Of a stretch of 64,000 nucleotides of DNA, positions 2,921 to 62,148 are shown piece after piece. The stretch comes from Candidatus Omnitrophota bacterium. GTDB taxonomy: Bacteria > Omnitrophota > Gorgyraeia > Zapsychrales > Zapsychraceae. The notes below the pieces were generated by a model that saw only the letters and a list, made by a program, of their open reading frames with translations, had not been told where the DNA came from and searched no databases. Both the position numbers and the translations under genes were made by a program. The DNA is taken from NCBI GenBank assembly GCA_029261055.1, contig JAJDCA010000071.1:25778-89777 (forward strand). Reading direction: 5' to 3'. Positions within the stretch are counted from its first letter, which is position 1. Each line of letters starts with the position of its first letter.

Positions 2921-2945
2921 ATTAAATTAAAAAAGGAGAAGTTAA

Positions 2946-3392: not shown

Positions 3393-3753
3393 TAGAAAAG
3401 GTTTTTCTTTAATTGAAGTCATTATAACGATTGTTCTTTTGACGGTCGGTGTTATTTCGATCTTGCAGATGTTTAGCATCGGACTGTTTGCAGACGCAGA
3501 AACAGAGAATCAAACAACCGCTTTTTATTTGGCTCAAGAAAAGATGGAAGAAGTTCGTGACGCTTCATCTTACGCGAATATTGATTCTTTTGCGGCATCT
3601 AAAACAGCCCTAACCGGGAGTTTTATTGACTTTTCTCGTGAGGTTACTGTTTCTGGAACACCTAAGCAGGTCAATGTTATTGTTTATTGGAATGTTAAAG
3701 GGGCGGAGCAGAGTGTTGATTTGGTTTCATTATTTGCCGATTATAATTACTGA
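3376..3753 (+). CDS. Minor pseudopilin (GspI/PilV-like), prepilin-type N-terminus
   Basis: MGQGSNRKGFSLIEVIITIVLLTVGV contains the G|FSLIE prepilin motif. The longer ORF-track start at 3352 overlaps the upstream gene, so an internal ATG near 3376 is more plausible. Confidence 0.75.
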   Translation: MGQGSNRKGFSLIEVIITIVLLTVGVISILQMFSIGLFADAETENQTTAFYLAQEKMEEVRDASSYANIDSFAASKTALTGSFIDFSREVTVSGTPKQVNVIVYWNVKGAEQSVDLVSLFADYNY

Positions 3754-3789
3754 TGAAAAAACAAGGGTTTACCCCGTTAGAGATAAAAA

Positions 3790-11225: not shown

Positions 11226-11241
11226 GAATAGTCAGAATTTT

Positions 11242-13842: not shown

Positions 13843-15108
13843 ATGGATGAACAATTACGAGAGAAAATTAATCGTTATTTGATTAAAGATACAGATTTTC
13901 TTAAAGTTAAAGATACCATGAACGAAGATCAGTTACGTTTGTTTGTTAATCAAGCCATTGATGATTTTAGCGCTGAGGAAACTTTGGAGTTGGATCTTGC
14001 TCAACGGATGGGATTCATCCAGGAGTTAGTCAGTGCCGTTGTGAGCATGGGGCCTATCAAATCGCTTATGGAAGACAAAACCATCACGGAAATTATGATT
14101 AATGGTGCTAAAAAAGTGTACATTCAAAGGGACGGACGGATTATCAAAACAGATATTGTATTTGAGGATGATCAGCAGCTTTTACATACGATTCAGAAAA
14201 TTCTTATTGGATCCGGATCGAATAAGCGTGTGGATGAATCATCGCCGTATGTTGATTTTTCTCTTACGGATGGCTCGCGAGTCAATGTGATTATTTCACC
14301 TTGTTCAATGGTTGGGCCGGTTATGACGATTCGTAAATTTCAAGATAATATTGCGACGGTGGATGATTTGTTGGAATTGGAAGAATTAGATAAAAGTATT
14401 GCGACTTTATTAATTGGGGCAATGAAAGCAAAATTGAATGTGATTTTTTGCGGGGCGACAGGGAGTGGTAAAACAACGGCTTTAAATGTTTTTTCTCGTC
14501 ATATCCCATCCCATGAACGTATTGTAACGATAGAAGATACTCCGGAATTAGGTTTACTTCAAGAGCACGTGGTTACGTTGGTTTCCAAGGCTTCAAACAT
14601 TGAGGGTAAAGGGGAAATTACAATTAGAGAGCTTTTTGTTAACTCTTTGCGTATGCGCCCGGATCGTATCATTATTGGAGAAATTCGTGGTGAAGAAATG
14701 TTGGATTTGATTCAATCTATTTCCAGTGGGCACAGCGGCTCGTTAGCTATTGTTCATGCTGAGAGCCCTGAAGATTGTTTTAACCGGATGGTGACGATGA
14801 TTTTGATGACAGGTATTCGCTTGAGTAATGAGGAAATTCGAAAACAAGTCGTCAAAGCCATTGATTTGATTGTGCATGTAGAGTTATTTATGGATGGAAA
14901 ACGTCGCGTGACAGCGGTCACAGAATTAGCTTATGATGAGTCAACAGGAAAAGTTACCCAGCATGATATTTTTCGATTTCAACAAAATGAAGTCAAAGAA
15001 GATGGAAACATTATTGGTGAATGGATCATGGATAAACGAAGACCTTCTTTTATTGAAAAGTATGAAAAAAGAAGAGTTATTTTACCGGAAGGTTTTTTTG
15101 AGGCATAA
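13843..15108 (+). CDS. CpaF/TadA-family secretion ATPase (VirB11 superfamily), orphan
   Basis: Walker A GATGSGKTT, IVTIEDTPEL, and RPDRIIIGEIRGEE His/Asp box typical of CpaF. Confidence 0.8.
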   Translation: MDEQLREKINRYLIKDTDFLKVKDTMNEDQLRLFVNQAIDDFSAEETLELDLAQRMGFIQELVSAVVSMGPIKSLMEDKTITEIMINGAKKVYIQRDGRIIKTDIVFEDDQQLLHTIQKILIGSGSNKRVDESSPYVDFSLTDGSRVNVIISPCSMVGPVMTIRKFQDNIATVDDLLELEELDKSIATLLIGAMKAKLNVIFCGATGSGKTTALNVFSRHIPSHERIVTIEDTPELGLLQEHVVTLVSKASNIEGKGEITIRELFVNSLRMRPDRIIIGEIRGEEMLDLIQSISSGHSGSLAIVHAESPEDCFNRMVTMILMTGIRLSNEEIRKQVVKAIDLIVHVELFMDGKRRVTAVTELAYDESTGKVTQHDIFRFQQNEVKEDGNIIGEWIMDKRRPSFIEKYEKRRVILPEGFFEA

Positions 15109-42681: not shown

Positions 42682-43584
42682 ATGAAAATATTTTTTACAT
42701 TTCTTTTTTTAGTAATACTTTCCCCATTTGCTTATGCTGATGGTCCTCCAATCTTTGTCATAGGCCAAGAGGTACAATCCATTCATGATTATATGGAAGC
42801 AACAAAGAGAAATGCAGATCAACCGGATGGGTTTATGGTATACACAGCCATAAACGATATTCGCGGGTTATGGGAGCCTGTGGACCAAGGTGCCGGAATT
42901 AATTATGCAGACCAATTACTTAAAGAGTACCCTAAAATATCCGTTATTCAGATTGGTCTATATATGCGCTATATGCTTAAAGAGACTCTAAATGGAAGTT
43001 TTGATAAAACTATAGATCAATTAGGAGAATGGATTAAAAAGACCGACAAACAAGTTTATTTGCGTATTGGTTATGAATTCGATAACCTAGAAAATCAATA
43101 TAACCCCGAAGATTATAAGCAGGCCTATCGGTATATTGTTGATCGTCTTCGATCTAGAGACATCAGTAATATCGATTTTGTTTGGCATACGATAGCGTGG
43201 AGGGATAAGGATTGGCCAGCATATGATCCTTTAAAATGGTATCCGGGAGATGAATATATTGATTGGGTAGGCATATCTTTTTTTGATTCTAAACAAGATA
43301 AGGAGCGGATAAAAGCGGCGGAAATTGCTCATCAAATTAATAAGCCATTAATGATTGCAGAAAGTTCTCCATTTTTTCAATATACCAATGACGAAAAATT
43401 GGAATGGATGAACAAACTCTTTGAGTATATGAAGACATATCGTGTTAATTTCTTGAGTTACATTAATGTTAATTGGGATCATTTACCGATGTTTAAAAAT
43501 CAAAAATGGGGTGATAGTCGCTTACAGATTGAGCCCGTTATAATGAGTAAATGGTTAGAAGAAATTAAGGAATTCAAGCGATAA
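42682..43584 (+). CDS. Secreted glycoside hydrolase, GH26-like (clan GH-A, beta-mannanase-type)
   Basis: Signal peptide MKIFFTFLFLVILSPFAYA; LRIGYEFDN (acid/base Glu), WYPGDEYIDWVGISFFD and KPLMIAESSP (nucleophile Glu) match GH26 signatures. Confidence 0.6.
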   Translation: MKIFFTFLFLVILSPFAYADGPPIFVIGQEVQSIHDYMEATKRNADQPDGFMVYTAINDIRGLWEPVDQGAGINYADQLLKEYPKISVIQIGLYMRYMLKETLNGSFDKTIDQLGEWIKKTDKQVYLRIGYEFDNLENQYNPEDYKQAYRYIVDRLRSRDISNIDFVWHTIAWRDKDWPAYDPLKWYPGDEYIDWVGISFFDSKQDKERIKAAEIAHQINKPLMIAESSPFFQYTNDEKLEWMNKLFEYMKTYRVNFLSYINVNWDHLPMFKNQKWGDSRLQIEPVIMSKWLEEIKEFKR

Positions 43585-43842
43585 GAAATTTCCTGACTTC
43601 GCCATTTTTTACTTCTAGGTTTTTTCATTGTACCACAGGTCAAGGACACGCTTACGCTTGCAAGTGGCCTCTTGTTCTTAGTTTTGTCGGCCATCCTTGA
43701 TTTGTCTGTGGTCTTACGGAATTATTACAACAGGACTGTTTGGGATATGAAATTCAGATTGATGAAGGAGGATTTATCGATTATTTGGTCGGAAGTTTGG
43801 CTGTAATACATCAGGTGACGGGGTACTCGGTATGGTCACTGA

Positions 43843-44214
43843 TTAAGTCAATCGATGCCAATGTTTCCAGATAAATAGTCCGATGAGCACAGGTACTACG
43901 AACAGTGTGACTAGCACAGCAGGCTGTGTGTAAAGAACTAATATTTCGTCGTTTGGAGGAATGAGAAAAAAGCTTGCGGTGCCAACTGTGAACCCTCCAA
44001 AATATAGATAGACGGCCCATCTACGTAGGCGAAGGAAGCCGATGCCTGCGACAACCGCTAGGGTCTTCAATAGGCCGTTCCAGATTCCTCGCGTAAATCC
44101 GAAGTCGCTTCCACTTATGATAATCTTCAAGACAAACACTAAACCTCCAAGTATCAAGAACCAACCAAGAATCTGTAGCGGTAGCGGGGATTTTTCATTA
44201 ACTTCATTGCTCAT
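43843..44214 (-). CDS. Small membrane protein (3-4 TM), unknown
   Basis: 123 aa, hydrophobic. Confidence 0.4.
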   Translation of the reverse strand: MSNEVNEKSPLPLQILGWFLILGGLVFVLKIIISGSDFGFTRGIWNGLLKTLAVVAGIGFLRLRRWAVYLYFGGFTVGTASFFLIPPNDEILVLYTQPAVLVTLFVVPVLIGLFIWKHWHRLT

Positions 44215-44556
44215 ACCTCAGACTCCATCGTGACCAAAAATTAATACATGAAAGTTTATTTTTCCGGGGGAAGGGAAATGATACTTAATAAAAGTATAAA
44301 GTATTTTCTAAGAAAATTCTATATTTTCCGATTTTTTAGTCAGGATTGAGAATTACTTAATTTATTACGTAATTCTTTTAAAAGTATCATTTTTGACATT
44401 GATATGAAAAGTTTGTCGAGGAGCTCTTTGTACAAATATCCAGGCTCCGCGGAGCCTAGATATTTGTACAAAACTAGTTAGTGCTTCGACTAGATTGAAA
44501 TTATCTGTTGCTAATTTCAATTTCGCTCAGCACACGCTCCGATTCATGTGAAGATA

Positions 44557-45516
44557 TTAGAACATTTGTGGGTTGATGATGGTGTTTTGGTAGGGGGTTG
44601 GGGCTTTGGCTTTGTTGATGGCTGAGCCTTTTAAGAGCATTTGCGTGGCGGCGGTTTCTTGGTTCATGGCTTTGAGGGACAGGCTTAAATAATAGTAGGT
44701 GTCTGAATATTCAGGATTTTCCTTGAGGGCTTTATCGAAATAAAAAATGGCTTGGCCGTATTGTTTGAGTTCGTAGGCGGCTAAGCCGGCAAAATAGTAA
44801 AAGAAGTCTAATTCATCGATTTTTAAATAGATGGCATAGTTAGTGATATTGAGGAGTTCTTTGTAGTTTTTTAAGTGTAAGTTGCTGAGGACTAATAATT
44901 TGTAACAGTTTTGTGTGCCAGTGCCCAGATGGGTGGACATTGTTTTTCCCAGTCCGGATAATCCTACAAATAATCTGCGATAAATTTCTGAAGTACTGAG
45001 TAATGTGAGGGTATGTGTGAGGTTTGTGGTCAGGGCTTTGTTAAGAGGTTCAATGGCATCGGCATACCGGCCATCCTTAAAGTTAATCACCCCAAGATTG
45101 TAATAAAACCAGAAAAATTGAGGGTGCAATTCTGTGGCTTTTTGGAAGTATTCAATGGCTTTGTTTTGATCGTCGGCATGATAATACGCGAATCCCAACA
45201 TGCCATGAGCTGTTGGATTTTGAGGAAAAAATTCTGTAATTTTTTTGTAATAGGTAATGTTTCTTTGCAATTCTGCTTTATTAAAGGGGCCTTGATTTTC
45301 TTCGTATTTTACGAAATAGGATAGATCGGGTTTAAGATCGTTCAATGCTTTGAGCATATTTTTATCCTGGACTTTTGTGTAATCAATCACATGGCCGAGA
45401 AGAAAATAGATCAATACATACATTAAAGCGAGACGCTTGCAAAGCCAAACTACGGAGTGCAGGATAATTTTTAGCACGGATCGGTCGCCGGTTCTATTTG
45501 TTTTTGTTTCATCCAT
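44557..45516 (-). CDS. TPR-repeat protein with N-terminal membrane anchor
   Basis: TM helix VLKIILHSVVWLC... followed by several TPR-like units (AHGMLGFAYY..., AIEYFQKATEL..., YYNLGVINFKDGRYADAIE...). Confidence 0.65.
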   Translation of the reverse strand: MDETKTNRTGDRSVLKIILHSVVWLCKRLALMYVLIYFLLGHVIDYTKVQDKNMLKALNDLKPDLSYFVKYEENQGPFNKAELQRNITYYKKITEFFPQNPTAHGMLGFAYYHADDQNKAIEYFQKATELHPQFFWFYYNLGVINFKDGRYADAIEPLNKALTTNLTHTLTLLSTSEIYRRLFVGLSGLGKTMSTHLGTGTQNCYKLLVLSNLHLKNYKELLNITNYAIYLKIDELDFFYYFAGLAAYELKQYGQAIFYFDKALKENPEYSDTYYYLSLSLKAMNQETAATQMLLKGSAINKAKAPTPYQNTIINPQMF

Positions 45517-47702
45517 AGGGATATTAAGTAAAAAAGTATAAAATTAAACAGTCCTAATAAAAAGTAGTTTAAAGAATAATGCCACCAGGTGCCATAACGA
45601 AAGGTGACCGTATTTTCACCTGCCGGAAGCCAGACACCTTTGAAAGCGATGTTTGCCTGCCAGAGAGGAGTTTCTTTCCCATTGAGAAAAGCTTTCCAGT
45701 CTTTATGAAAGTTATCATTGTAGACGAGGAATTTTTGTGTATCAAAGTGTGTTTTAACCTTTATGGCGTTAGGATTAAATTTTAGAACCTGAAATTGTTG
45801 TGAATTTTCTGTGATAAGTTGATAGGTTTTTGGATGATTTTTTTCTGCGATAGGGGTAATCGTTTTTTTATTGAAATCAGGTGAAGAAATGAGGGCCAGG
45901 TTCTTTTTTTCTTTTAATAAGCGCTGGAGGTGGTTTAAATCGGTTATGTCATTATTGATCCATTGAACATCATCATAAAGAATAAATTTGTGTCGTGCAT
46001 AGGCGTCCAAAATGTTTGGGTTAATATTGTTATGAAGAAGGTTGTGCCATTTTGTCGTAATGTACAGTATGGAAGGTTTTTGGATTAAGGCGGTATTTTC
46101 TTCTGACGTATTAGTAAGGTCCTGTTTTTGAGATTCGCCCCATCGTGTAAAAGTAAAATTTTCATGAGGGGCGTCATACCTATTTGAATCTTTAGATATG
46201 AATGCATTTTGATTGATGTAGTGAAAAACTTCCATGGATTGTGTTGCTGTAAGGATAAAGAGGAAGAGGGGCACATATCGTGCCGCCTTTTGATGGAGCT
46301 TTGATGCCAGGAAGAAATGATAAACAAAAAATAAAAAGCTGAAGCCGATAACAGCATAAGAAGTGATGATGGCATTGTTGAGTTTATGAAGAAAAATAAA
46401 GGCGGCAAGGTGGACAAGGATTAAATAAAGAAAAAGACCATATTTTGTCGTTATTGTATTGGTTTGGATGTTTAAGAATGCGCGTAATTGGTCGACAATA
46501 AATAAAATAAAGACAGGTAAAAGAAATATCCATAAAAAATTGGTTGAATTGCGAAAATATTTAAAGAAAAATACATGTTGATACAAAAAATGATAAATAG
46601 GCCCCTCTGTCGATAAAATAAGAAAAAGGCTGACACCGCAGAGTAAAAAGAAAAAGTTTCGTTTATGCAAAGCTGTAAAAGCTCCCAGCAAAAGCAGTAA
46701 ATAGCCAAAAATCGGGATATGAAATAACTCTAACCCTGTTTTACGAAAATCAGGAAAAAGTTTGTCAAATTGAAGTCGTGTAATAATGCCCTGTTCACCA
46801 CCTTCAATAACAGCAAGATCAACGCTTAGGGTATTTTCGGACGAAGAGTTTGCGTGCCGCATGGGGAGAACGATGTCGTTTTGTTGTCCTTCTAAATAGA
46901 AGAAGAGTCCGGGGAGGAGAGATAGAATAAGACAAAATGTGCAAAAACTAACAAAAATTTTGTGTTTTTGAAGGAATTGATAATAGCGAAGGCAAATCGT
47001 TTTTAAGCATCGAAAATAGAGAAGAATAAAACATAATAGAGAAATTAGAAGGATAGTCAGAAAATAAAATGGGATGTACGTTGTTAAGATGATCATTAAT
47101 GTAAAAGTTATTCCCAGGCCATACAGTTTTTTTGGTTCTTGCGAAAAGGACAGTAAGAAATAAAAAAACCAGGCAATAGGGGTAAATAAGAAAATAATGT
47201 AATTAAAGAATAAAAGTGTGCCAAGCGATGAAAATAATAAGAGAAGGAAGGCGGCCAGTGCCATGGTCGTATCTTGAAATATCCGTTTAGCTAATAAATA
47301 GAAACCGCTCATCCCCAAGAAAAAATAAGCAGAGAGAAATATGAGGTAGGACGACACGTAGGGAAGCCCGGCTTTATGCAGGATCATAATGAAAAAGTAA
47401 AAGGGATTAAACGCTCCGATGCGTCGTAAGAAAAACTCATTGGGGAGGCCTGTCTGCCAGAAATGATCCCATAAAGGATAGACGCCATGACCAATATTGT
47501 CGATGTAAAATTTGATATGATCATAATAAGATACAGCATCGACAATGAGGCGCAGTTTTCCTGATAAGAAATCTTTAAAAGCAAATAGCCATAAAGCTGA
47601 TGAGATAAAAAGTAAAATAGGGATAGTTTTACGATAATTCATAGAGATAAATTGAGGCTCCTTTGCGTTCCAAATATTGTATTCGTTTTCCTTGTTTATC
47701 AA
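45471..47702 (-). CDS. YfhO-family-like GT-C membrane glycosyltransferase (polytopic, with C-terminal extracytoplasmic domain)
   Basis: ~13 TM helices. The C-terminal block FLVYNDNFHKDWKAFLNGKETPLWQANIAFKGVWLPAGENTVTFRYGTW + terminal TM matches the YfhO family C-terminus. Confidence 0.6.
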   Translation of the reverse strand: MINKENEYNIWNAKEPQFISMNYRKTIPILLFISSALWLFAFKDFLSGKLRLIVDAVSYYDHIKFYIDNIGHGVYPLWDHFWQTGLPNEFFLRRIGAFNPFYFFIMILHKAGLPYVSSYLIFLSAYFFLGMSGFYLLAKRIFQDTTMALAAFLLLLFSSLGTLLFFNYIIFLFTPIAWFFYFLLSFSQEPKKLYGLGITFTLMIILTTYIPFYFLTILLISLLCFILLYFRCLKTICLRYYQFLQKHKIFVSFCTFCLILSLLPGLFFYLEGQQNDIVLPMRHANSSSENTLSVDLAVIEGGEQGIITRLQFDKLFPDFRKTGLELFHIPIFGYLLLLLGAFTALHKRNFFFLLCGVSLFLILSTEGPIYHFLYQHVFFFKYFRNSTNFLWIFLLPVFILFIVDQLRAFLNIQTNTITTKYGLFLYLILVHLAAFIFLHKLNNAIITSYAVIGFSFLFFVYHFFLASKLHQKAARYVPLFLFILTATQSMEVFHYINQNAFISKDSNRYDAPHENFTFTRWGESQKQDLTNTSEENTALIQKPSILYITTKWHNLLHNNINPNILDAYARHKFILYDDVQWINNDITDLNHLQRLLKEKKNLALISSPDFNKKTITPIAEKNHPKTYQLITENSQQFQVLKFNPNAIKVKTHFDTQKFLVYNDNFHKDWKAFLNGKETPLWQANIAFKGVWLPAGENTVTFRYGTWWHYSLNYFLLGLFNFILFYLISLWMKQKQIEPATDPC

Positions 47703-49308
47703 ATCCGCTTAAGATGATTGCTTTGAGTTTGTCGTTATTAGCGGAAACGGTTGAGAAAAAAAGCCATACTCTTCCTTTAAGTGCGAAAGGAAGCCGTTTA
47801 TTTTCAATAACGATATTTTTGTTGTCGCCATTATTGAGGACAACAGATTCTCTAAAATATCCTGCCGTATTGTAAAGGTGGTAGACATATCGGAAAGGAA
47901 CGTAGTTAATCCCTTGATGTTCGCTGGGGGAAAAAGGGAATTGTGCGATTTTATGGCCTTCTAATAGGGAGCTGTTTCGTTTACCCAGGTTTTCTTTAGG
48001 GAGCGTGTGGCTGAAATTCATCTGGCTGGCATAGTACCAGTAGGAGAATTGCGCAGAAGAGTCAAGGAATAAAGAATCTCCGGGTTGAAAATGTTTTTTA
48101 AAGGCTTCAAGAACAAAGCGGTTATCTTCAATAACACGGGGGATGAAAAGATTTGTTAATGTTATTTCAACCGGTTTGTAGAGTAATAATGCAAAAAGGG
48201 TTAGGCCAATTAAGAACGGAGAAGATTTTCCTAAATTACTTTTATGGATAAGCTTTATTAAAAATACAATACCTTGGGCCATAAAAATGAATATGGCAGG
48301 TAATAAGAAAAGAAGTAGTCGGCTACGAAAGGGGTATTTTTGTAAGATGGCGGCCAATAGGGTTAAGACAATAGGTAATAAGAGTAGAAAAAATATTTTT
48401 CGATTTTTTTTAAATAAAGAAAGGCTGCCAAGGATAAAGAAAAATGCTGTGAGGTAAAGAGGGCGAAAACCTCCAGGGTCGCGCAGGGCATTCAGGCAAG
48501 AAGATTTTAACCATATCAGGTTTTTCCAGGCCAAGAGTGGTTGCGGCATGAGGGCGCCTTGCCATGTTACTAAAATTGTTTGGTTGTCAACCATATGAGA
48601 GAGGGATACCTTGTACAGACTGAGGAAACTTATCCCCCAAAGGGCAAAGGCTGGTAAGAGCATTAAGAGTCTGGTCCATTGTTTTTTTAGACAGCAGTAA
48701 CCCGTCAAAATTATTCCTAATCCGGCGAGAATAAAGAGGCAAGAACTAGATAGCCATATGGCTAATGCCCCTGTAATGCTCAATACAAAGATATTGAGGG
48801 GGCGTAGTTTTTCATGGTTCATTTTTGTAAAAATAAGACATAAAAGTAAGCTGACAAAAACATCGGAAGAGTATTGTTTCACTTCGGCAGAGTAGTAGAT
48901 GAGGCGTTCGGAAATGGCAAATAAGGCCAGGGCGAGCGTTAAAGTTTTTGGCCCAACAGTGTTTTTAAGAAAAAAATAAAATAAAATCAGAGATCCAAGG
49001 CCGCATAAAAGTGGGAACAGACGAAGAGCTAATTCATGATTTCCCAATAGGGTCACCATAAATTTCTCGATGAATAGAAAAATTAAAGGGGCTTTGGCGA
49101 GTTCAGGAAATATTTCGACATTCTGCCATATTTCTGAAAAGGAACGGTTCACAATAGCAATGGCCAGACAAGATTCATCCGTCCAGAGGGAGCGGTTTTC
49201 GAAATAAAACTTGAGCCGGAGAATCATTCCAAACAGGATGAGGCCAATATGGAAGACAGGGCTAATAAAGAAATTAGGTAGACGTCGGGTCATTTTTAAA
49301 ACAAACAT
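47629..49308 (-). CDS. GT-C glycosyltransferase, family 39/83-like (PMT/ArnT-type)
   Basis: Polytopic, with LWTDESCLAIAI (DE motif in first extracytoplasmic loop) and a C-terminal soluble domain. Confidence 0.55.
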   Translation of the reverse strand: MFVLKMTRRLPNFFISPVFHIGLILFGMILRLKFYFENRSLWTDESCLAIAIVNRSFSEIWQNVEIFPELAKAPLIFLFIEKFMVTLLGNHELALRLFPLLCGLGSLILFYFFLKNTVGPKTLTLALALFAISERLIYYSAEVKQYSSDVFVSLLLCLIFTKMNHEKLRPLNIFVLSITGALAIWLSSSCLFILAGLGIILTGYCCLKKQWTRLLMLLPAFALWGISFLSLYKVSLSHMVDNQTILVTWQGALMPQPLLAWKNLIWLKSSCLNALRDPGGFRPLYLTAFFFILGSLSLFKKNRKIFFLLLLPIVLTLLAAILQKYPFRSRLLLFLLPAIFIFMAQGIVFLIKLIHKSNLGKSSPFLIGLTLFALLLYKPVEITLTNLFIPRVIEDNRFVLEAFKKHFQPGDSLFLDSSAQFSYWYYASQMNFSHTLPKENLGKRNSSLLEGHKIAQFPFSPSEHQGINYVPFRYVYHLYNTAGYFRESVVLNNGDNKNIVIENKRLPFALKGRVWLFFSTVSANNDKLKAIILSGFDKQGKRIQYLERKGASIYLYELS

Positions 49309-50647
49309 AACAACAGAAAAATAAAATCGAGGGTAATAAATAAAAATAAATTCGGCTCAAAGTGCTTCTGAGCCTCCAGGATAAGTCAAAATTAATGGTT
49401 GTCAGGTAAATAAAGATTAAAATACAAAAATATGTCAGAAAAAAGAATGTAATCACTTTATTTTCTTTTTGAAAAAATTCAGAAAACCGCGGCAGGACCA
49501 TAAACAAAATCAGGCACCAGATCAGTCCCCACTTGAGGTTTACAATTTCCGCAATGACGGCTGATAATGTAATGGTTAAACCTTTTAAATTCAAGAATTC
49601 AAAGTTTTTTATTCCAGTGCCGGGAAGAATGTCTGGATTAGGCGGCGCCAGAAAAAGTTTGAAGATGAGGCAGGCCGAAAAAGTGACAATCAATCCGATA
49701 AAAAATCGGGATAATAACCTACGCAGACCCCCGAGGTCTGTTTGGTTTTTGATTTTCTCAAAAACAAGATAAAGGCAAATCATGCCTGTAAGGAGGATGG
49801 CCATGACAATGCCTTCATTTTTTGTAAAGGTTAATAGCCCCATAACAAGACCCGCTAAGATGGCGATAGAATCGTTTTTTTCACGGATTGTGAGCATGGT
49901 CAGGATTGTTGCCGCACAGAGATAAAAGGCTAAAAGGATGTCGGCATATTGGGATGAGCCTAAGAGAATAAAATGGGGTATGAGGAGTAATAGAAATGAA
50001 GCCAGGAAGGCGATTCTTTTTCGGGTAAATTGGTACAAACCGGCAAAGATTAAAAATCCACTATTGAGAGTAAATACAAACGCAGTTGCCAGGGTAATGT
50101 GATGAATAGGGCCGGGGGCAACGGCATAGATCCAGGTATTAATAAAGGGAAGGAGCAAAGGGTAATCTGGTTGCGTGTAGGGATGGAGTTTATCAAAAAT
50201 TACTGTCCAATCAGCGCCGTTGAGGATAAGGAATTTTGTTTTTGTATTGTACAAGGCCCAGGCATCCCATCCGCCAAAAGGGTATCTTTGAAACAAGAAA
50301 TAGAGGCATCCGGAAAGGATTGCGCCACCTAAAATCAGGCCGATGGAAGAAGGGCGAAAAATATTTTTTGTAAAGAAATTTTCAAACGACGGAAGTTTTT
50401 TTTTGGAATAACAAAAAAAAGATAAGGCCAGTAAGCAAACTATGTTTATGCCGATAACGGTAAATCGGTGGAAACCATTAAACATAAGAAATGAAAAAAA
50501 TGTCAGTATGGAAGAAATACCTAGGCCAAGGCCGAGGCTGAGAGATAGACGTAGCGGGGCCTTCATCATTTTGGAATCTTGAAGGATCGCATGGATTGTT
50601 AAGAATCCGATAAAGAATGAGATGAGATAAGCTAATAAAATGGTCAT
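49274..50647 (-). CDS. Polytopic membrane protein, GT-C-like putative glycosyltransferase
   Basis: 457 aa, ~11 TM, and a GGWDAW loop motif. Family not assignable by eye. Confidence 0.4.
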   Translation of the reverse strand: MTILLAYLISFFIGFLTIHAILQDSKMMKAPLRLSLSLGLGLGISSILTFFSFLMFNGFHRFTVIGINIVCLLALSFFCYSKKKLPSFENFFTKNIFRPSSIGLILGGAILSGCLYFLFQRYPFGGWDAWALYNTKTKFLILNGADWTVIFDKLHPYTQPDYPLLLPFINTWIYAVAPGPIHHITLATAFVFTLNSGFLIFAGLYQFTRKRIAFLASFLLLLIPHFILLGSSQYADILLAFYLCAATILTMLTIREKNDSIAILAGLVMGLLTFTKNEGIVMAILLTGMICLYLVFEKIKNQTDLGGLRRLLSRFFIGLIVTFSACLIFKLFLAPPNPDILPGTGIKNFEFLNLKGLTITLSAVIAEIVNLKWGLIWCLILFMVLPRFSEFFQKENKVITFFFLTYFCILIFIYLTTINFDLSWRLRSTLSRIYFYLLPSILFFCCYVCFKNDPTST

Positions 50648-51126
50648 GGTTTTTTTACAGCTAATACCTTGCCGTAGCGATTAGCATAAATCGGTACAGC
50701 GCCTATTTTATCTAATGTGTAAAGGACAAAAGATTCATGGGTGTAATTTAAAATGGTCCATGGGTGATCTGCATTATTGAAATCTAAAATTGTTGGAGCG
50801 AGCATGTTTTGAGCGCGTAAAAATTCTCCGTCATTATGTTCAGGCGACATATCTTTATTGGTTAGATAGCCGACATGTTTTACTTTGCGGAGTTTTTCTT
50901 TCAAATCAGCATAGGGAAATCCCGGTGCTATGATAGGTTTATGGAGTTTTTGGATTTGAACCAAGGTATTCACGCCCACAAAGAACATGTTGATGGCAAG
51001 AAGTACGGCCGCGAAGCCAATAATAATATTATTGTGCCGGAAAATTTTTTTCATTGATTGAGGTTTGATGCATTTTAAGAAAAGTAAGATATTTGGGTAA
51101 CCATTGTTCATGGATTTTCTTTCCAT
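50644..51126 (-). CDS. Membrane-anchored hypothetical protein (start possibly at the internal Met, MKKIF..., codon 51054-51052)
   Basis: Single N-terminal TM with 4-nt overlaps to both neighbours. Confidence 0.4.
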   Translation of the reverse strand: MERKSMNNGYPNILLFLKCIKPQSMKKIFRHNNIIIGFAAVLLAINMFFVGVNTLVQIQKLHKPIIAPGFPYADLKEKLRKVKHVGYLTNKDMSPEHNDGEFLRAQNMLAPTILDFNNADHPWTILNYTHESFVLYTLDKIGAVPIYANRYGKVLAVKKP

Positions 51127-52756
51127 CTAAAATCCATACAAATCCTTTTTGGCGGTCTTCCTTGCTGATTTGTCCTAACATGAGATCCCGGTAAGTGCAA
51201 ACTTCTTGCTCCTGTGTCCAGACAGGACTAGAAGAAAGAGTTGGAAAACGGGCAACGACATATTTTTTGAATTCTCCAGATTGATAAAGAGCTGTCAATA
51301 CAGGATCATCATTAAAATCTTTCTCCATGCAGGAGTTCCAGATGGTTTTTCCTGTTATGGGTGGCACAAGGATGTACCCTTCTGTGACTTGGGCAATTGT
51401 TTGAATGCCTCCAAATTTTAAATCGCCGGTCTCTTTGGGGTTTCGTAGAAACATGATAACATTTTTATTGCGTGCATGATTTTTGTATGTGTAAATACGA
51501 TGAATGTCATTTTTCATGAGCCAATCGTAGATGTGGGTGTTGGCCATGCGTGAGGGAAGAATGTCATTAAAAAAGATAAAACCATTAAATAATAAGTGAC
51601 CTGCAAAAATACTGGCCAGGCTAAACGCAATTATTTTTTGTTTTCGTGGAGACCACGCGGGCCATTCTTCTTTAAGGGTGTAAACGGCTATCGCAATTCC
51701 CAGGATAATACCTATGATCCATGAAAAGTAATTTCGCCCAAATTGGGCTACTTTAACAATTTCTACACAGACAGGCGTTGAAATACTGAGCAAAATAATA
51801 GCGAATATCCAAGGCCTTTTTACAGATTTTTTCGCCAAATACACGAGGCTGACAAGATAAGTAATAAACATAATGGGTGTGATGAAAAAGAAATATTTAA
51901 TAATCCATGCCCAGCCGCCCCCTCTAAACCCTTCAGGAATAGGGAAATATTCAACCAGTGCTTTCTTCCAGAGGATAAAATCATTACCCTTTTGGCTAAA
52001 CGCCAGAAAATCTATAAAAGTTTTGATGTAGGTAACAGGATCAGGCAAGGTGAAATACAAAAGGATAAGGATGGATCCTAAAAGTACGAAGACTAAATGG
52101 AGGAGGGTTGTCTTTAAATTAAATTTTTTAAAGGGGATAATAAAGTGATAAATAGCAAATGCCATATAATAGGGAAGATAGATCGGTGATGTGGGTGAAG
52201 AAAAGATCATGAAGCCTAAAAATAATCCAGATAAAAAAGAAAAGAATTTGCGAAGGCGTCCATATTGGAGAAAAAAGATGGCTACCAAACAATTCATAAG
52301 CACCAATGGAGGATGAGCGCCCTGAAGGATGTACAAATAAGGCCAGGCGGACGTAGCGAAGAGTAGAGCGGCCACAAATCCTGTCGCGGCGTTAAAAAGC
52401 TTTTTAAAAATAAAATAAAATAAAACAGTCGATATGTTTACGGCAATGATCAATACGAGGACATTAGGAAACAACGTGGTGAAATCATTGAGGAGGCGTT
52501 GCATCACAGCAATCCCTAATATCAGAGATTCTTTAAAGCGCATGATAAGCTTAAACCCGACGAGCTCATGAATTTCAGAAACATACGGCTGATTAAAAAG
52601 CCGCGTTGCCGCTGGAATGTAAGGATGATGCGAATCGGTAGGCCAGTAATTGATGTAGTAGGTGGATATGCATAAAAAAATAGTTGCTGCTAGAGAAAAG
52701 ATAAGAATGCCGCTCAGATAATACTTGGAGAAATTTGGTCGGTTCACAATAGCCAA
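51029..52756 (-). CDS. Polytopic membrane protein, GT-C-like putative glycosyltransferase (PMT_2-like architecture)
   Basis: 575 aa, ~12 TM, and a C-terminal soluble domain. First gene of the minus-strand array. Confidence 0.45.
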   Translation of the reverse strand: MAIVNRPNFSKYYLSGILIFSLAATIFLCISTYYINYWPTDSHHPYIPAATRLFNQPYVSEIHELVGFKLIMRFKESLILGIAVMQRLLNDFTTLFPNVLVLIIAVNISTVLFYFIFKKLFNAATGFVAALLFATSAWPYLYILQGAHPPLVLMNCLVAIFFLQYGRLRKFFSFLSGLFLGFMIFSSPTSPIYLPYYMAFAIYHFIIPFKKFNLKTTLLHLVFVLLGSILILLYFTLPDPVTYIKTFIDFLAFSQKGNDFILWKKALVEYFPIPEGFRGGGWAWIIKYFFFITPIMFITYLVSLVYLAKKSVKRPWIFAIILLSISTPVCVEIVKVAQFGRNYFSWIIGIILGIAIAVYTLKEEWPAWSPRKQKIIAFSLASIFAGHLLFNGFIFFNDILPSRMANTHIYDWLMKNDIHRIYTYKNHARNKNVIMFLRNPKETGDLKFGGIQTIAQVTEGYILVPPITGKTIWNSCMEKDFNDDPVLTALYQSGEFKKYVVARFPTLSSSPVWTQEQEVCTYRDLMLGQISKEDRQKGFVWILDGKKIHEQWLPKYLTFLKMHQTSINEKNFPAQ

Positions 52757-52877: not shown

Positions 52878-53150
52878 ATGGTAAAAAAATTGCTTTTACT
52901 TTTTGTTGCAATTGCATTAATTGGGTGTGCCTACGAAGGGCAAGAATTAAAAACATACATTAAAAATCCACGCTGGTTTATTAAGGATCCCCATTTTGCC
53001 AACTACAAAGATAAGCGTAATGCTTTGGAAAGTTCTTATTTAAACAAAGAATTGACCTACGCGGAATATGTGGAAGAGATGAATGGGTTGGATGAGACAT
53101 ATGCGAAAGAAGTTCAGGAAAGAGATGCGAAGATTGCAGAATCGTATTAG
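52878..53150 (+). CDS. Small lipoprotein
   Basis: Lipobox LIGC, with an AAGGAGAGG RBS. Confidence 0.5.
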   Translation: MVKKLLLLFVAIALIGCAYEGQELKTYIKNPRWFIKDPHFANYKDKRNALESSYLNKELTYAEYVEEMNGLDETYAKEVQERDAKIAESY

Positions 53151-55502: not shown

Positions 55503-57824
55503 ATGGCCGCTCAACATATTGAATTTAAAGATTTAGTAAATAATCTTCAGATAGGGGTTATGCGTTGTTCTTCCAGCGCACAGTCAAAGTGTGTGTATGT
55601 TAATGCCGCCTTTCGGGAGATGTTTGGTTTTAATGTTAAAGACATTTCAGGATTACATTTAGCTAGTATTTTTGTGGAGCATCGGAAATATCAATTATTA
55701 AAGAAAACAGTGTCTGAGGAAGGTTGTGTTAAAAATTTTGAAGCACGTTTAAGGGGGAAGGAACAAAAAATTTTATGGTGTTCTGTAGCGGTGGTAACGG
55801 TTAAAGATGTAAAGGGGAAGGTGGAGTTTTTTGATGTGACCCTGGCCGATATAACGGCACGAAAACAGTATGAGCGGGAAATATTAGAGTCGAAAGAATT
55901 ATTCCATACGGTTTTTGATAATACAGCCGCAGCTATTACGGTGACCGATAAGGACGAAAGAATTATCGCATGGAATCCCTTTGCTGAGAAAATGTTGGGG
56001 ATGGATAAAGAAGGTCTTTTTAATAAATCCATTAAAGATTTTTACCCTTCAAAGGAGTGGCGGAGATTGCGTGCTCTAAAGCTTCGTCAAAATGGTTTGC
56101 ATGCTGATGTGGAGACTCAAATTTATAAAAAAGATGGAGGTCTTATTGAGATTAGTCTTTCGATATCAATGTTAAAAAATTTGAATGGTAAGATTATCGG
56201 TGCCATCGGTATTATGCGGGATATCACAAATCAGAAAATAGCTGAACGAAAAATTAAAGAATCAGAAAATAAAATTCGGATTATTTTAGATAATTCTGCT
56301 GCAGCGATGATGTTGAGCGATAGTCAAGAGAGGATCGTTTCCTGGAATAAATTTGCGGAACAACTCCTTGGAATGAAGAAAAAAGATTTATATCTCAAGT
56401 CTGTAAGTTCTTTATATCCTGAAGAGGAATGGCAAAAAATTCGGGATGCCAATATTCGAAAAGTCGGTTCCAGGCATCATTTGCATACAAAAATTATCAA
56501 TAAAAAAGGAAATATTATTGATGTAGACCTTTCGGTGAACGTTTTGAGAGATTCGGAAGGTAAAGTAACAGGGTCCGTCGGTATCATGCAGGATATTACT
56601 GAACAAAAGCGTTTTCAAGAAATGCTTGTTCAGGCCAAATTGTCTGCAGAAGAGGCGAACAGTGCGAAATCATTATTTTTGGCCAATATGTCGCATGAAG
56701 TACGTACGCCGATGAATACTATTATGGGAATGATTGATTTAACGCTGGATACATCTATGAACGAAGAGCAAAAAGATAATCTCGTTGTTGCTAAAGAGGC
56801 TGCCGATAATTTATTGGGTCTTTTGAATGATATTTTAGACCTTTCGCGTGTTGAGGCCGGTAAGATTACGCTTGAGAATATTGAATTCAATTTACATAAT
56901 GTTATTCGCAGTGTCTGTAAGGGGTTATCGGTTATTGCACGTAATAAAAATTTAGAATTAGTGGTGGATATATTGCCTAAAGTGCCTGAAGAAATTTTAG
57001 GAGATCCTGTCCGGTTACGTCAAATTCTTATTAATCTGATTAATAATGCTATTAAATTTACACATAAAGGGAAGGTTACCACGCAGGTTAAAGTGGCCTC
57101 ATCTCTTTCAGAAGATGAAATCGTATTATTATTTTCTGTCATTGATGAGGGGATTGGTATTCCGAAGGATAGGCACGAACAAGTTTTTGAAATATTTACT
57201 CAAGCAGATGATACGACAACACGACGTTTTGGTGGGACAGGTTTGGGGTTAGCTATTTCCAAACGTCTTTCTGAGATGATGGGGGGGCGTATTTGGGTTG
57301 AAAGTGAAGAGGGTAAGGGAAGCACGTTTAGTTTTACGGGAACTTTTAAAATTGTGGAAGTAAATAAAACAGGGAGTACACCTTCCATAGGGGCTGGGGG
57401 AGAGAATTTTGATGTAGATGGTTTTAAAGAAGATTTGAAGGGGCTACGTATTTTATTAGCAGAAGATAATATTGTTAATCAAAAAATTGCTTGTCGGTTG
57501 CTTGAAAAGCAAGGGTGGATTGTTACAGCTGTTGATAATGGTCAGGCTGTTCTCGATCAGATTCATAAGGAGCCGTTTGACGTTGTTCTTATGGATGCGC
57601 ACATGCCAATTCTTGATGGTTTGGAAGCGACGAATCTTATAAGAGAGAATGAAAAGACGACAGGAAATCATATTCCTATTATTGCGTTAACAGCGAGAGC
57701 TATGCAAGAAGATCGAAAAAAATGTATCGATGCCGGCATGGATGGGTATGTTTCTAAACCGATAGACCGTAAAAAATTGTTTGAAGAAATTTGGATTTTA
57801 TTAAAAGATAAAATGAAAAAATAA
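55503..57824 (+). CDS. Hybrid sensor histidine kinase (3x PAS - HisKA - HATPase_c - REC)
   Basis: Three PAS repeats, H-box MSHEVRTPMN, N/G boxes (NLINNAIKFT; GGTGLGLAI), and a receiver domain with VVLMDAHMP. Confidence 0.88.
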   Translation: MAAQHIEFKDLVNNLQIGVMRCSSSAQSKCVYVNAAFREMFGFNVKDISGLHLASIFVEHRKYQLLKKTVSEEGCVKNFEARLRGKEQKILWCSVAVVTVKDVKGKVEFFDVTLADITARKQYEREILESKELFHTVFDNTAAAITVTDKDERIIAWNPFAEKMLGMDKEGLFNKSIKDFYPSKEWRRLRALKLRQNGLHADVETQIYKKDGGLIEISLSISMLKNLNGKIIGAIGIMRDITNQKIAERKIKESENKIRIILDNSAAAMMLSDSQERIVSWNKFAEQLLGMKKKDLYLKSVSSLYPEEEWQKIRDANIRKVGSRHHLHTKIINKKGNIIDVDLSVNVLRDSEGKVTGSVGIMQDITEQKRFQEMLVQAKLSAEEANSAKSLFLANMSHEVRTPMNTIMGMIDLTLDTSMNEEQKDNLVVAKEAADNLLGLLNDILDLSRVEAGKITLENIEFNLHNVIRSVCKGLSVIARNKNLELVVDILPKVPEEILGDPVRLRQILINLINNAIKFTHKGKVTTQVKVASSLSEDEIVLLFSVIDEGIGIPKDRHEQVFEIFTQADDTTTRRFGGTGLGLAISKRLSEMMGGRIWVESEEGKGSTFSFTGTFKIVEVNKTGSTPSIGAGGENFDVDGFKEDLKGLRILLAEDNIVNQKIACRLLEKQGWIVTAVDNGQAVLDQIHKEPFDVVLMDAHMPILDGLEATNLIRENEKTTGNHIPIIALTARAMQEDRKKCIDAGMDGYVSKPIDRKKLFEEIWILLKDKMKK

Positions 57825-59964: not shown

Positions 59965-61074
59965 ATGAGCCTATACATTCACATTCCTTTTTGTAAGCGA
60001 AAATGTTTTTATTGCTCATTTGTCGTCGTGGTTAGTCAAGAACAACGAATAGATTTGTATTTAGAGTGTTTGGCAAAAGAAGCAAAAAAATACAAAGGTT
60101 ATAAAATTAATTCAATTTTTATCGGTGGAGGGACTCCAACTTTATTAAATAATAATCAGTTTAAAAAACTTTTTAAAATCATCTTTGATAATTTTGAAGT
60201 TAGTGATTCTGCGGAATGTACGGTTGAAGCTAATCCCGAAGGGCTTTACTCGTCGAGAATAAGACTATTAAAGAGTTTAGGAGTTACGCGTATTAGCTTA
60301 GGCGTGCAAACTTTTAATAATACGTATTTAAAAGCTCTTGGACGTAATCATGATTGTAAAACAGCAGTAAAAACTTTTCGTAAAATAAAACAAAATGGTT
60401 TTGATAATGTTAGCATTGATCTTATGTATGGATTTCCCGAACAAACTTTTGAAGAATTAAAACAAGACTTAAAGTGTTTTACGCAATTAGGAGCAGAACA
60501 TATATCTATTTATACATTGACTCTAGAAAAGAATAGCCGATTTTATACGAAGAAAATTTCTTTACCGGATAGTCAAGTGTTAGCAGAGCAATATGTTGTG
60601 GTGGCAGAGTTTCTTGAGGCTGCAGGATATAGTCAATATGAGATTAGCAATTTTGCCAAATCAAAAAAAGTTTCAGCGCATAATATTAATTATTGGAGAG
60701 GTGGAGAGTATGTTGGTCTTGGTGTTGCTGCACATTCTTATCTTCGTGGAAGGCGTTCCTGGAATGTTTGTAAATTTAAAGAATACTTAGCAGCGTTTGC
60801 TCAAACTAAAAAGTGTCCTAATGTTTGTAAAGGGTTTGAAGATTTATCGGCGTATGAACAGTTTAAAGATGTGGTGTTATTTGGATTGCGTATGAATAAA
60901 GGTGTTAATTTAAATAAAGAAGAAGATAGATTTGGATGCTCTTTATCTCCGAACCAACAAAAAAAGATAGACACCTTCATTAAGGAAGGTTGGCTTATAT
61001 TGGAGAAGGGGTATTTAAAAACAAGTGCCAGGGGTAGATTAGTTTTGGATGAGTTATGCGCCCAGCTTGTGTGA
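59965..61074 (+). CDS. hemW: Radical SAM heme chaperone HemW (HemN-like oxygen-independent coproporphyrinogen oxidase family)
   Basis: LYIHIPFCKRKCFYCSF (CxxxCxxC) and a HemN_C-like C-terminus. Confidence 0.85.
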   Translation: MSLYIHIPFCKRKCFYCSFVVVVSQEQRIDLYLECLAKEAKKYKGYKINSIFIGGGTPTLLNNNQFKKLFKIIFDNFEVSDSAECTVEANPEGLYSSRIRLLKSLGVTRISLGVQTFNNTYLKALGRNHDCKTAVKTFRKIKQNGFDNVSIDLMYGFPEQTFEELKQDLKCFTQLGAEHISIYTLTLEKNSRFYTKKISLPDSQVLAEQYVVVAEFLEAAGYSQYEISNFAKSKKVSAHNINYWRGGEYVGLGVAAHSYLRGRRSWNVCKFKEYLAAFAQTKKCPNVCKGFEDLSAYEQFKDVVLFGLRMNKGVNLNKEEDRFGCSLSPNQQKKIDTFIKEGWLILEKGYLKTSARGRLVLDELCAQLV

Positions 61075-62148
61075 AATGTTGTTTTGATGGGCTATGCGGT
61101 TGCTGTGATCAAATAATTGGAAGAGGGCTTCTTCGATAATATTTTTGTAAGGGCTGCGCATTTTTAAACTAGCCAAAATTTTTAAAGTTTTCTTCAAGCG
61201 GCTATCTATGTGTTTGAGGCAGTAAGGCAGGCTTCCTGCATCAATAAATATTTTTCGGACCGCTACGAGATCTTTGTATGTTTTTTTAGGCTTGTTAAAA
61301 ATATCCGTAAATTGTTTCTTTTTTGTCCCCTTTAAATGTTCATATGCATGCGCCACGAGTAAAGTTTTTTTGGATTCAGCCAAATCACTTAGGATGGATT
61401 TGCCAATATTCTTTTCGGAATCAAATATGCCGATAATATCATCTTGAATTTGAAATGCCTGCCCGATCATAATGCCTAATTCAGAAAGTTTTTTGATGTC
61501 TTTGTTGTCCGCACCTGCCAGTATGGCCCCCGTGACTAAAGGACAATCAAACGTGTAGCGCGCCGTCTTAAGCGTGTAATTAAGAAAAACATCTTTTTCT
61601 TTTATTTTCTTTAATGGTTCCATGCCATGAATGGTATCAATGAACTCACCCATCGCTGTAAAAGCGGCTGTTTGAACAAAATATTTTAAAGCTCTCTCTT
61701 TGCGCTCCGCAGGCTCCTTAATTGATAGGAAGGCATCAATCGCAAAGGCATACACAATATCTCCGGCAATGATTCCTAGATCACGTCCAAGCTTATCCTG
61801 TGATTTAGTTTTTACAATTTTACCCAGGAGTTTGTGAAGTGTTGGTTTGCCGCGCCGTAAATTGGAACAGTCGATAATATCATCATGGATCAACATAAAA
61901 TTGTGCAGAAGTTCAATGCAAGTTGATGCATTATATAGAGAAGGCGTGGTTCTTTTATTTTTTGGGGAGTATCCTTTGTAGCTGAGGATCAACAAAAGCG
62001 GGCGGATGCGCTTGCCTTTGCGCAAAGAAAATTCTTTGATGCTTTCAAATAGAATAGGACTCACCAAATGGAGTTTATAGTCCTTTTTGACCCGTTCCAT
62101 AAAAGAAGCAAGGCTTGAATCAATTTGTTTCCGAATTTCTTCGATCAT
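61054..62148 (-). CDS. Polyprenyl diphosphate synthase (trans-IPPS, IspA/IspB family)
   Basis: First DDxxD in LIHDDIIDC and second in FQIQDDIIG. Confidence 0.85.
   Translation of the reverse strand: MIEEIRKQIDSSLASFMERVKKDYKLHLVSPILFESIKEFSLRKGKRIRPLLLILSYKGYSPKNKRTTPSLYNASTCIELLHNFMLIHDDIIDCSNLRRGKPTLHKLLGKIVKTKSQDKLGRDLGIIAGDIVYAFAIDAFLSIKEPAERKERALKYFVQTAAFTAMGEFIDTIHGMEPLKKIKEKDVFLNYTLKTARYTFDCPLVTGAILAGADNKDIKKLSELGIMIGQAFQIQDDIIGIFDSEKNIGKSILSDLAESKKTLLVAHAYEHLKGTKKKQFTDIFNKPKKTYKDLVAVRKIFIDAGSLPYCLKHIDSRLKKTLKILASLKMRSPYKNIIEEALFQLFDHSNRIAHQNNISHKLGA

Follow-up and report, generated by a model that had tools for sequence, protein, structure and literature searches.

A six-gene operon of Candidatus Omnitrophota, located on the minus strand (52756-44557) of a 64,000-nucleotide stretch of DNA (the window; GTDB Zapsychraceae, assembly GCA_029261055.1, contig JAJDCA010000071.1, positions 25,778-89,777 of the forward strand), is probably a conserved Omnitrophota envelope-glycosylation locus, in which four different enzymes of the GT-C glycosyltransferase class would act at the periplasmic face of the inner membrane. 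The genes are arranged head to tail in the order G575, anchor, G457, G559, Yfh723 and TPR319 (Table 1). Homologs of the window proteins carry the source name Candidatus Omnitrophota, and the same DNA with the same gene calls is present in a 31-kb Logan contig (contig 6040, run SRR15505515). Both this contig and the gene calls of the window support the gene list and coordinates given in an earlier note on this DNA, with two lengths revised. The anchor gene stands, with a product of 136 residues according to the gene caller and the homologs rather than 160 (a start at 51126 is less likely), and the YfhO-like gene also stands, with a recorded protein of 723 rather than 743 residues, the TTG start required for the longer form not being on record. 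That note overlooked two conserved gene pairs, YfhO-like with TPR and anchor with G457.

The operon and its four polytopic proteins

All five junctions of the operon overlap, by 26, 4, 35, 14 and 46 nucleotides in gene order. Promoter-like sites were not more frequent than in shuffled sequences and the terminator scan revealed no convincing terminator inside the operon. The arrangement is best read as a translationally coupled operon of four modules, two of which are apparent two-subunit enzymes.

Each of the four polytopic families displays an invariant acidic residue in the loop following the first canonical transmembrane (TM) helix: D41 in G575 (24 sequences), D128 in G457 (29 sequences), the pair D44-E45 in G559 (24 sequences) and D35 in Yfh723 (23 sequences). 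In G575 the residue belongs to a W-P-x-D motif after TM1 in which W38 and P39 are also invariant. In G559 it belongs to a W-x-D-E motif with W42 invariant, which gives substance to the DE loop recognised previously. The GGWDAW loop of G457, likewise predicted from the single sequence, sits after the fourth TM helix and retains G125, W127 and W130 together with D128 in every sequence compared, while the Yfh723 family conserves A36 beside D35 as well as the basic residues R262 and R364, with K361 nearly invariant. The positive-inside distribution of charges and hydropathy would place the invariant-Asp loops outside the cytoplasm.

Structural similarity searches with Foldseek, using AlphaFold models of Yfh723 and G457, retrieved GT-C enzymes only as the best PDB matches of both, with a probability of ~1.0. 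The Yfh723 model (pLDDT 82.3, pTM 0.86) is closest to STT3, ArnT, EmbB, AftD, DPY19 and Pmt4, and the G457 model (pLDDT 90.4, pTM 0.92), which is all-helical and has no soluble domain, finds STT3, ALG9, AftB, ArnT, ALG3 and PglB, with the 20 top matches all belonging to the GT-C class. Pairwise BLASTP detected no similarity among the four proteins. Profile-profile comparison with hhalign links three of the families to one another at 81-95% probability (G575 with G559, 94.6%, E 6e-8; G559 with G457, 90%, E 1.7e-6; G575 with G457, 81%), with Yfh723 standing apart. Taken together, the family relationships, the invariant loop acids and the two fold models support the prediction that four different GT-C-type enzymes share one operon, and the assignment of the four polytopic proteins to the GT-C class holds at the level of sequence families and predicted folds.

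G575 and G559 are the ArnT-like members of the set. Hydropathy predicts 8-10 or more TM segments for each (~8-11 for G575), followed by a C-terminal soluble domain of ~180 residues in G575 and ~175 residues in G559. The 77 homologs matched by G575 are all from Omnitrophota where the source is named, many of them with precomputed PMT_2 annotation and several named GT39. G559 has 430 homologs, many named GT39, from Omnitrophota, Cyanobacteria, Anaerolineae and Armatimonadota, and matches TIGR03663 at 38 bits, under the cut-off. The G575 homolog of locus L082 adjoins a GT2 gene and amino-deoxysugar nucleotide genes. The closest G559 homolog is surrounded by two GT9 genes, by GT2 genes and by one gene each for Wzy_C and a carbamoyltransferase, and this cluster resembles one for biosynthesis of the lipopolysaccharide (LPS) core.

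PilZ domains, which bind cyclic di-GMP, adjoin relatives of three of the four GT-C families or form part of the same protein, with none in the window. They were observed within the order GT2-PilZ-YfhO-TPR (L036:9588-9956), after a G575 homolog (L082:11740-12084) and as a PilZ-G559 fusion (protein P0149).

Table 1. Position, strand and description of the operon genes and of adjoining features; coordinates are those of the window.
Feature	Position	Strand	Description
Lipoprotein	52878-53150	+	90 residues, LIGC lipobox; separates RlmB from the operon, position conserved in L016, L021, L033 and L054
G575	51029..52756	-	575-residue PMT_2/ArnT-like GT-C enzyme; operon gene 1
Anchor	50644..51054	-	136-residue single-pass protein, predicted N-in; conserved, putatively periplasmic domain of ~100 residues
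G457	49274..50647	-	457-residue membrane-only GT-C enzyme
G559	47629..49308	-	559-residue GT39/ArnT-like GT-C enzyme
Yfh723	45471..47642	-	723-residue YfhO-like GT-C enzyme
TPR319	44557..45516	-	Membrane-anchored TPR protein, predicted N-in and periplasmic
Palindrome	44427..44472		46 nucleotides; 85 nucleotides past the TPR stop codon
Orphan membrane protein	43843-44214	-	123 residues, on the operon strand; GC 0.449 against 0.35-0.39 in neighbours
GH26 hydrolase	42682..43584	+	Secreted, Sec-type signal peptide; convergent with the operon

Two conserved gene pairs

Yfh723 comprises ~12 TM helices, an all-β C-terminal domain, predicted to be periplasmic (residues ~553-683), and a final TM helix. 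Its only match to Pfam YfhO (PF09586) is produced by the YfhO-type C-terminal motif noticed earlier and is confined to the last ~75 residues (profile positions 750-826 of 835); the match is partial and below the cut-off, and the protein is therefore labelled YfhO-like and not filed as YfhO. The family is matched at E <1e-3 by 15 of 23 Yfh723 relatives (best E 6.8e-8), and all source-named homologs originate from Omnitrophota. Short local Foldseek matches of the model to AftD, CBM6 and heparanase probably fall on the all-β domain.

The membrane-anchored TPR partner proposed from the single sequence is confirmed by Pfam TPR_1 (69.5 bits). When 79 genome loci around Yfh723 relatives were inspected, 75 of 82 full-length YfhO-like genes proved to have a TPR319 homolog at most 300 nucleotides downstream in the same orientation, with the pair often repeated in tandem. 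Three of 120 homologs among the matches listed (P0010, P0016 and P0083) are fusions of the two proteins, in which an extra TM helix separates the parts and the TPR part aligns with TPR319. TPR319 is proposed to be an acceptor-side subunit of Yfh723. The positive-inside rule suggests a periplasmic location for both the TPR domain and the soluble domain of the anchor protein, and for the TPR domain the extra TM helix of the fusions points the same way. When TPR319 was compared with the PDB, designed consensus TPR proteins ranked best overall and the closest natural matches were the TPR domains of OGT and SPINDLY; the latter were rejected as a clue to the ligand, as they reflect the TPR consensus only.

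Many Omnitrophota metagenome-assembled genomes (loci L003-L081) contain two or three YfhO-TPR modules, or more, which lie in tandem or on separate contigs, examples being UBA10174, OFTM390, RA.bin107 and nzgw314; several are labelled "uncultured Planctomycetales" in the records. A further GT-C-like family of 572-623 residues, which is not found in the window, displays a W-D-D-Q-H-L-E first loop and a DUF6798 C-terminus. It occurs in the order GT2, DUF6798-type protein, a conserved gene of 333-338 residues (GpsA-like by eye), YfhO-like and TPR (L047:6494-9920, L048:3716-7162 and L061:131-3564).

The second pair is formed by the anchor protein and G457. A full-library search identified 3443 relatives of G457, and 20 of 29 sampled relatives match PMT_2 at E <1e-3. 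The loci around these relatives inspected in metagenomes number 79. Where enough upstream sequence is available, the G457 homolog is directly adjoined or overlapped by the anchor gene in 72 of 73 loci, and L033, L086, L087 and L091 carry a duplication of the whole pair. The anchor protein has no Pfam, NCBIfam or PDB match. As G457 is devoid of a soluble domain, the anchor's predicted periplasmic domain of ~100 residues is proposed to act as a non-catalytic, acceptor-side subunit of this enzyme.

In three G457 homologs of ~1000 residues (P0322, P0324 and P0340) a further polytopic module is attached, in which an H-D-D loop follows the first TM helix and the C-terminus forms a soluble domain; by sequence they look like tandem fusions of two GT-C enzymes.

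Donor, acceptor and origin of the locus

The best reading of the four enzymes is that they use lipid-linked sugars in the periplasm. Both the GT2 neighbours of relatives and the basic residues R262, K361 and R364 of Yfh723 point indirectly to a polyprenyl-phosphate sugar as the putative donor. In the mechanism suggested by what is known of these families, a GT2 at the cytoplasmic face would synthesise the polyprenyl-phosphate sugar, which would be flipped across the inner membrane and taken as donor by each GT-C enzyme, the invariant Asp (or Asp-Glu) of the first periplasmic loop serving transfer to an envelope acceptor. G575 and G559 would read the acceptor through their own C-terminal periplasmic domains and Yfh723 through its C-terminal β-sandwich domain together with the TPR subunit, while G457, lacking a soluble domain, would work with the anchor protein as second subunit. 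The four enzymes would probably add four different residues, with the GT2 donor synthases and the flippase encoded elsewhere in the genome, and the GH26 hydrolase may trim the same glycan.

The earlier observation that the window contains no GT-A lipid-carrier sugar transferase was upheld by Pfam searches of coding-looking open reading frames (ORFs) of at least 200 residues and by a hidden Markov model (HMM) of the neighbouring GT2s run on six-frame ORFs of at least 60 residues: no GT2, GtrA-type or other recognisable flippase was found within the 64 kb, and homologs of the GT2, of the GFO oxidoreductase and of the hexapeptide transferase of related loci were likewise missing by tblastn and HMM searches of the window. 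Of the combination of GT2, flippase and GT-C enzyme, the window thus holds the GT-C components only, and no CsbB-type GT2 with GtcA/GtrA accompanies Yfh723 within it. Related loci present a different arrangement. In 34 of 48 related loci the region upstream of anchor-G457 holds, in divergent orientation, a GT2 of 245-260 residues and a GFO/IDH/MocA oxidoreductase, sometimes joined by a hexapeptide acyltransferase, and CsbB/GtrB-like GT2s of 316-323 residues with a hydrophobic C-terminal stretch are located just upstream of YfhO-TPR in L027 and L036. No flippase was identified in any related locus. The donor-forming step had been supposed to be either elsewhere or novel; since relatives keep ordinary GT2 genes beside their modules, the first option is likely and the second is disfavoured, the simplest reading being that the donor GT2s of this genome are encoded outside the window. 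Multi-component periplasmic glycosylation systems follow the same GT2-donor logic (PMC8035078, PMC11127046; the former covers YfhO and PMT_2 enzymes).

The window also contains an undecaprenyl-diphosphate synthase gene in the usual UppS-CdsA-Dxr-RseP cluster (9684-13763) and a separate polyprenyl synthetase gene (61054-62148), which are housekeeping sources of lipid carriers unlinked to the operon.

Among the possible acceptors, an envelope glycan or glycolipid (LPS core, O-chain or another polysaccharide) is the most likely and is preferred to a protein. This preference arises from the all-β C-terminal domain of Yfh723, from the LPS-core-like cluster around the closest G559 homolog, from the location of the closest Yfh723 homolog near a GT28 gene of the monogalactosyldiacylglycerol-synthase type, and from the PilZ domains near or fused with three of the families, as in polysaccharide systems controlled by cyclic di-GMP. 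The first two features also speak against protein O-mannosylation, raised as an example in the earlier note, which is not favoured. A broader version, in which YfhO-like with TPR and perhaps the PMT_2-type enzymes O-glycosylate proteins of the envelope, for example type IV pilins or large surface proteins, with the TPR domain binding the acceptor as in TfpW and in eukaryotic TMTC, TMEM260 and PMT enzymes, is unlikely. Its appeal lies in architecture, as a GT-C enzyme with a non-cytoplasmic TPR domain is also the design of TfpW, the pilin arabinosyltransferase of P. aeruginosa (bioRxiv 10.1101/2020.04.19.049825), and of the TMTCs, where GT-C is joined to a lumenal TPR (PMC7801869). The TPRs of TPR319 are canonical, with OGT and SPINDLY domains as closest natural matches; type IV pilus genes share the window (22-7318), and two to three or more YfhO-TPR paralogs per genome would fit several protein targets. 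The OGT match is nevertheless a matter of consensus closeness, no YfhO-TPR module lies beside a pilin gene in the 79 loci, and both the all-β domain and the LPS- and glycolipid-like neighbourhoods favour glycan acceptors. Moreover, periplasmic TPR proteins also take part in polysaccharide export, as in BcsC, AlgK and PelB.

Another alternative is a periplasmic assembly line, in which the four enzymes would act in series to build one chain instead of adding independent side decorations. Polyprenyl-phosphate sugars are used in this manner by ALG3/9/12/6/8/10 in the lumen of the endoplasmic reticulum (ER) and by the Emb and Aft enzymes of mycobacteria. The translational coupling of four different GT-C genes would suit such a process, as would the fusion of G457 homologs to a second HDD-loop module, the two or three GT-C modules in a row that are common in relatives (L086, L091, L005, L017 and L047) and the hydrolase gene at the operon end, which many polysaccharide operons also display. 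However, each module occurs alone in relatives, often with a GT2 of its own, a pattern better explained by single sugars being added independently. The orthologous loci L021, L033, L054 and L163 lack G575 and G559, making the set of four lineage-specific, and no genes for polymer export or priming lie nearby. Action in series is quite unlikely.

The locus itself reads as conserved and inherited. It had been described previously as a horizontally acquired island, more AT-rich and homopolymer-rich than its flanks and next to a toxin-antitoxin remnant, and none of these features was recovered: the GC content is 0.381 both in the island and in the rest of the window (0.356-0.393 for individual operon genes), homopolymer runs occur at 4.9 per kb against 4.0 per kb elsewhere, a difference smaller than one standard deviation among windows of 8.2 kb, and the supposed remnant is only an XRE-type helix-turn-helix (HTH) protein with a weak MqsA-family match. 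Rfam and tRNA scans of the window were empty, and no integrase or flanking repeat was found at the locus. The position beside RlmB recurs in seven other Omnitrophota loci (L016, L021, L033, L054, L089, L163 and L166). In the first six the order M48 peptidase, HD hydrolase, RlmB and 90-residue lipoprotein is followed by anchor-G457 (with YfhO-TPR), and in L166, the closest relative found (72% identity in G575), RlmB is followed by G575, anchor and G457 as in the window.

Foreign origin is very unlikely and, for the core of the locus, contradicted by this synteny, by the uniform composition and by the restriction of source-named Yfh723 and G575 homologs to Omnitrophota. Some observations speak for it. 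G575 in the window replaces the divergent GT2-oxidoreductase pair of related loci and G559 is inserted between G457 and Yfh723; both are absent from the orthologous loci L021, L033, L054 and L163, so that genes were gained or lost. In addition, the adjoining region at 38.2-44.5 kb holds a DUF4143 ATPase, two ORFs with no family match, the HTH protein and GH26 at the junction of an apparent inversion. The GreA-Mla-YacP block abuts the operon in L021 and L163 and lies 13 kb off and inverted in the window, where GC skew, strongly positive elsewhere, is approximately zero over 31-39 kb (GreA-YGGT-Mla-YacP-LipA-Def); both the skew and the opposite orientation make a recent inversion of this block likely.

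At the operon end, the palindrome comprises 23-nucleotide arms that are 96% complementary with no intervening loop, and it occurs once in the window. Lacking a downstream T-run on the minus strand, it may represent an operon-end hairpin or a protein-binding site rather than a classic terminator. The orphan membrane protein has no family match, and ~160 related loci contain no homolog of it; in size it could be a small flippase, a role that nothing supports.

The secreted GH26-like hydrolase predicted beyond the TPR gene proved to be a true GH26 by family profile and nearest relatives, with its signal peptide and a Pfam Glyco_hydro_26 score of 32.8 bits (cut-off 20.2). Its nearest relatives are β-1,3-xylanases: phmmer against the PDB returned XYL4 (2ddx; E 5e-31) followed by AlXyn26A (7xjr; 3.5e-18). 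The Glu residues of its GYEFD and IAES motifs align with those of AYEVD and LNES in XYL4, which we take to be the GH26 acid/base and nucleophile positions. In the orthologous locus L163 a homolog of 40% identity is found at the corresponding place, flanked by GreA and the GT-C operon and again convergent, and a link with the operon is plausible but weak.

Outside 43.8-59 kb the window was annotated by Pfam batches. A hybrid histidine kinase of 773 residues (55503-57824, plus strand; three PAS domains, HisKA, HATPase and receiver) was considered as a cyclic di-GMP enzyme and rejected on its domain content; L021 has a large gene at the matching position. A type IV pilus set extends over 22-8365 and 13843-15108 (PilB-like ATPase, PilC, PilX_N protein, PilM/PilN fusion and a second T2SSE-family ATPase).

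Weight of the evidence and comparison with known systems

Several observations weigh against the proposed glycosylation locus. The four families are known from sequences and predicted models alone, and models were made for Yfh723 and G457 only. The Foldseek TM-scores of both are low (0.3-0.46) with modest E-values, and the similarity is therefore taken as a shared fold class and not as close kinship. All four window proteins score below the Pfam cut-offs (PMT_2: 24.2 bits for G575, 25.0 for G457 and 22.0 for G559, cut-off 26.1; YfhO: 24.2-24.3 bits for Yfh723, gathering cut-off 28.5), and sequence searches of the PDB, with family profiles of Yfh723, G559 and G575 and with G559 and the anchor protein singly, returned nothing meaningful. 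To these are added the lack of GT2 and flippase genes within the window, the dependence of the acceptor argument on the single loci L164 and L165, and the absence of GH26 from other related loci, which leaves its operon link resting on two loci.

Such low scores, the missing PDB sequence matches and the presence of AmtB and GLUT3 among low-ranked Foldseek matches could also suggest transporters or inactive structural membrane proteins, a highly improbable reading given that transporters reach a Foldseek probability of at most 0.28 against ~1.0 for the GT-C matches, that the acidic residues are invariant exactly at GT-C sites, that the sub-threshold PMT_2 and YfhO families nevertheless pass the cut-offs in many relatives, often named GT39 or YfhO, and that GT2 genes recur as neighbours. 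The HMM searches, which might have assigned the proteins to transporters or exposed the YfhO motif as spurious, did neither.

LPS, teichoic acids, mycobacterial walls and eukaryotic glycoproteins are all shaped by GT-C enzymes that act outside the cytoplasm on lipid-linked sugars, and few bacterial GT-C families have a known function. Systems of this kind have been described before; new are the coupling of four different GT-C genes in a single operon, the presence of two obligate partner pairs and the lack of donor genes in cis. Two testable units emerge, a YfhO-like enzyme almost always accompanied by a membrane-anchored TPR protein, and a minimal membrane-only GT-C enzyme almost always accompanied by a small single-pass protein, usually with a GT2 and an oxidoreductase. 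If they are true two-subunit enzymes, they would explain acceptor recognition by small GT-C enzymes, a problem named as unsolved in a review (PMC8035078). With several modules per genome, the surface glycans of Omnitrophota may be unusually elaborate, a matter that bears on how such tiny uncultured cells attach to partners. As a lead, the conserved modules are solid and testable, while their function, in an uncultured organism, rests on inference. A bolder proposal, to which a low likelihood is given, holds that Yfh723-TPR319 and anchor-G457 are undescribed two-subunit GT-C enzymes which, with the two ArnT-like enzymes of the coupled operon, would form a periplasmic assembly line building, and not only decorating, an Omnitrophota-specific surface glycan or glycoprotein, under cyclic di-GMP (PilZ) control in some relatives. 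If true, a phylum whose cells are tiny and possibly host-dependent would possess a bacterial counterpart of the GT-C pathways of the ER lumen or of mycobacteria.

In comparison with known systems, Yfh723, likewise a large GT-C enzyme, resembles YfhO of the CsbB/GtcA/YfhO system of Firmicutes teichoic acids (PMC8035078, PMC5836110) in its YfhO-type C-terminus, its all-β, putatively extracytoplasmic domain and its final TM helix, and its relatives in L027 and L036 share the CsbB-like GT2 just upstream. In contrast, the match of Yfh723 is limited to the last ~75 residues and is below the cut-off, the window has no GT2 or GtcA in cis, and the Yfh723 group has an obligate TPR partner, none being described for YfhO. 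The host differs too, as this Omnitrophota bacterium is presumably diderm (GT9 and Wzy_C genes in relatives, Mla genes in the window), and to our knowledge diderm bacteria do not make teichoic acids.

G575 and G559 present the size, a PMT_2-like membrane domain, the acidic first loop and C-terminal, presumably periplasmic domain of ArnT, and the genomic context of their homologs, LPS-core-type genes around the closest G559 homolog and amino-sugar nucleotide genes with a GT2 beside a G575 homolog, also recalls the ArnC/ArnE-F/ArnT and GtrA/GtrB/Gtr(type) systems. This contrasts with the absence of a detectable sequence match between the window enzymes and solved ArnT, with the four GT-C enzymes of the operon where Arn and Gtr systems have one, and with the lack of an ArnC/GtrB or flippase gene near the locus.

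The ALG and Emb/Aft pathways likewise employ several different GT-C enzymes with polyprenyl-phosphate sugars on one side of the membrane, and ALG9, ALG3 and AftB are among the matches of the G457 model; unlike in those pathways, there is no sign of action in series here and the modules are separate in relatives. TfpW, TMTC1-4 and TMEM260 combine a GT-C membrane domain with a non-cytoplasmic TPR domain, as the Yfh723-TPR319 pair is predicted to do; here the TPR usually belongs to a separate gene with its own anchor, and the catalytic part of Yfh723 is YfhO-like rather than PMT- or Emb-like, with no evident protein acceptor. The GH26 hydrolase matches XYL4 of Vibrio sp. (2ddx) over nearly the whole mature protein, with both catalytic-position Glu residues aligned; it differs in having no CBM31 modules and in its location beside a GT-C operon in Omnitrophota.

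A further parallel is "Component 27", a YfhO-like dark glycosyltransferase family of bacterial polytopic proteins of ~665 residues that are annotated automatically as YfhO and are structurally distinct from it (Durairaj et al. 2023, PMC10584680); in the same study a YfhO-like family is the largest "dark" cluster of the AlphaFold database. The published description of Component 27 includes neither a TPR partner nor an operon context. In both cases, however, STT3 leads the structural matches (STT3/PglB being the closest solved structures of Component 27), and the YfhO-like family of the present locus may overlap this dark family.

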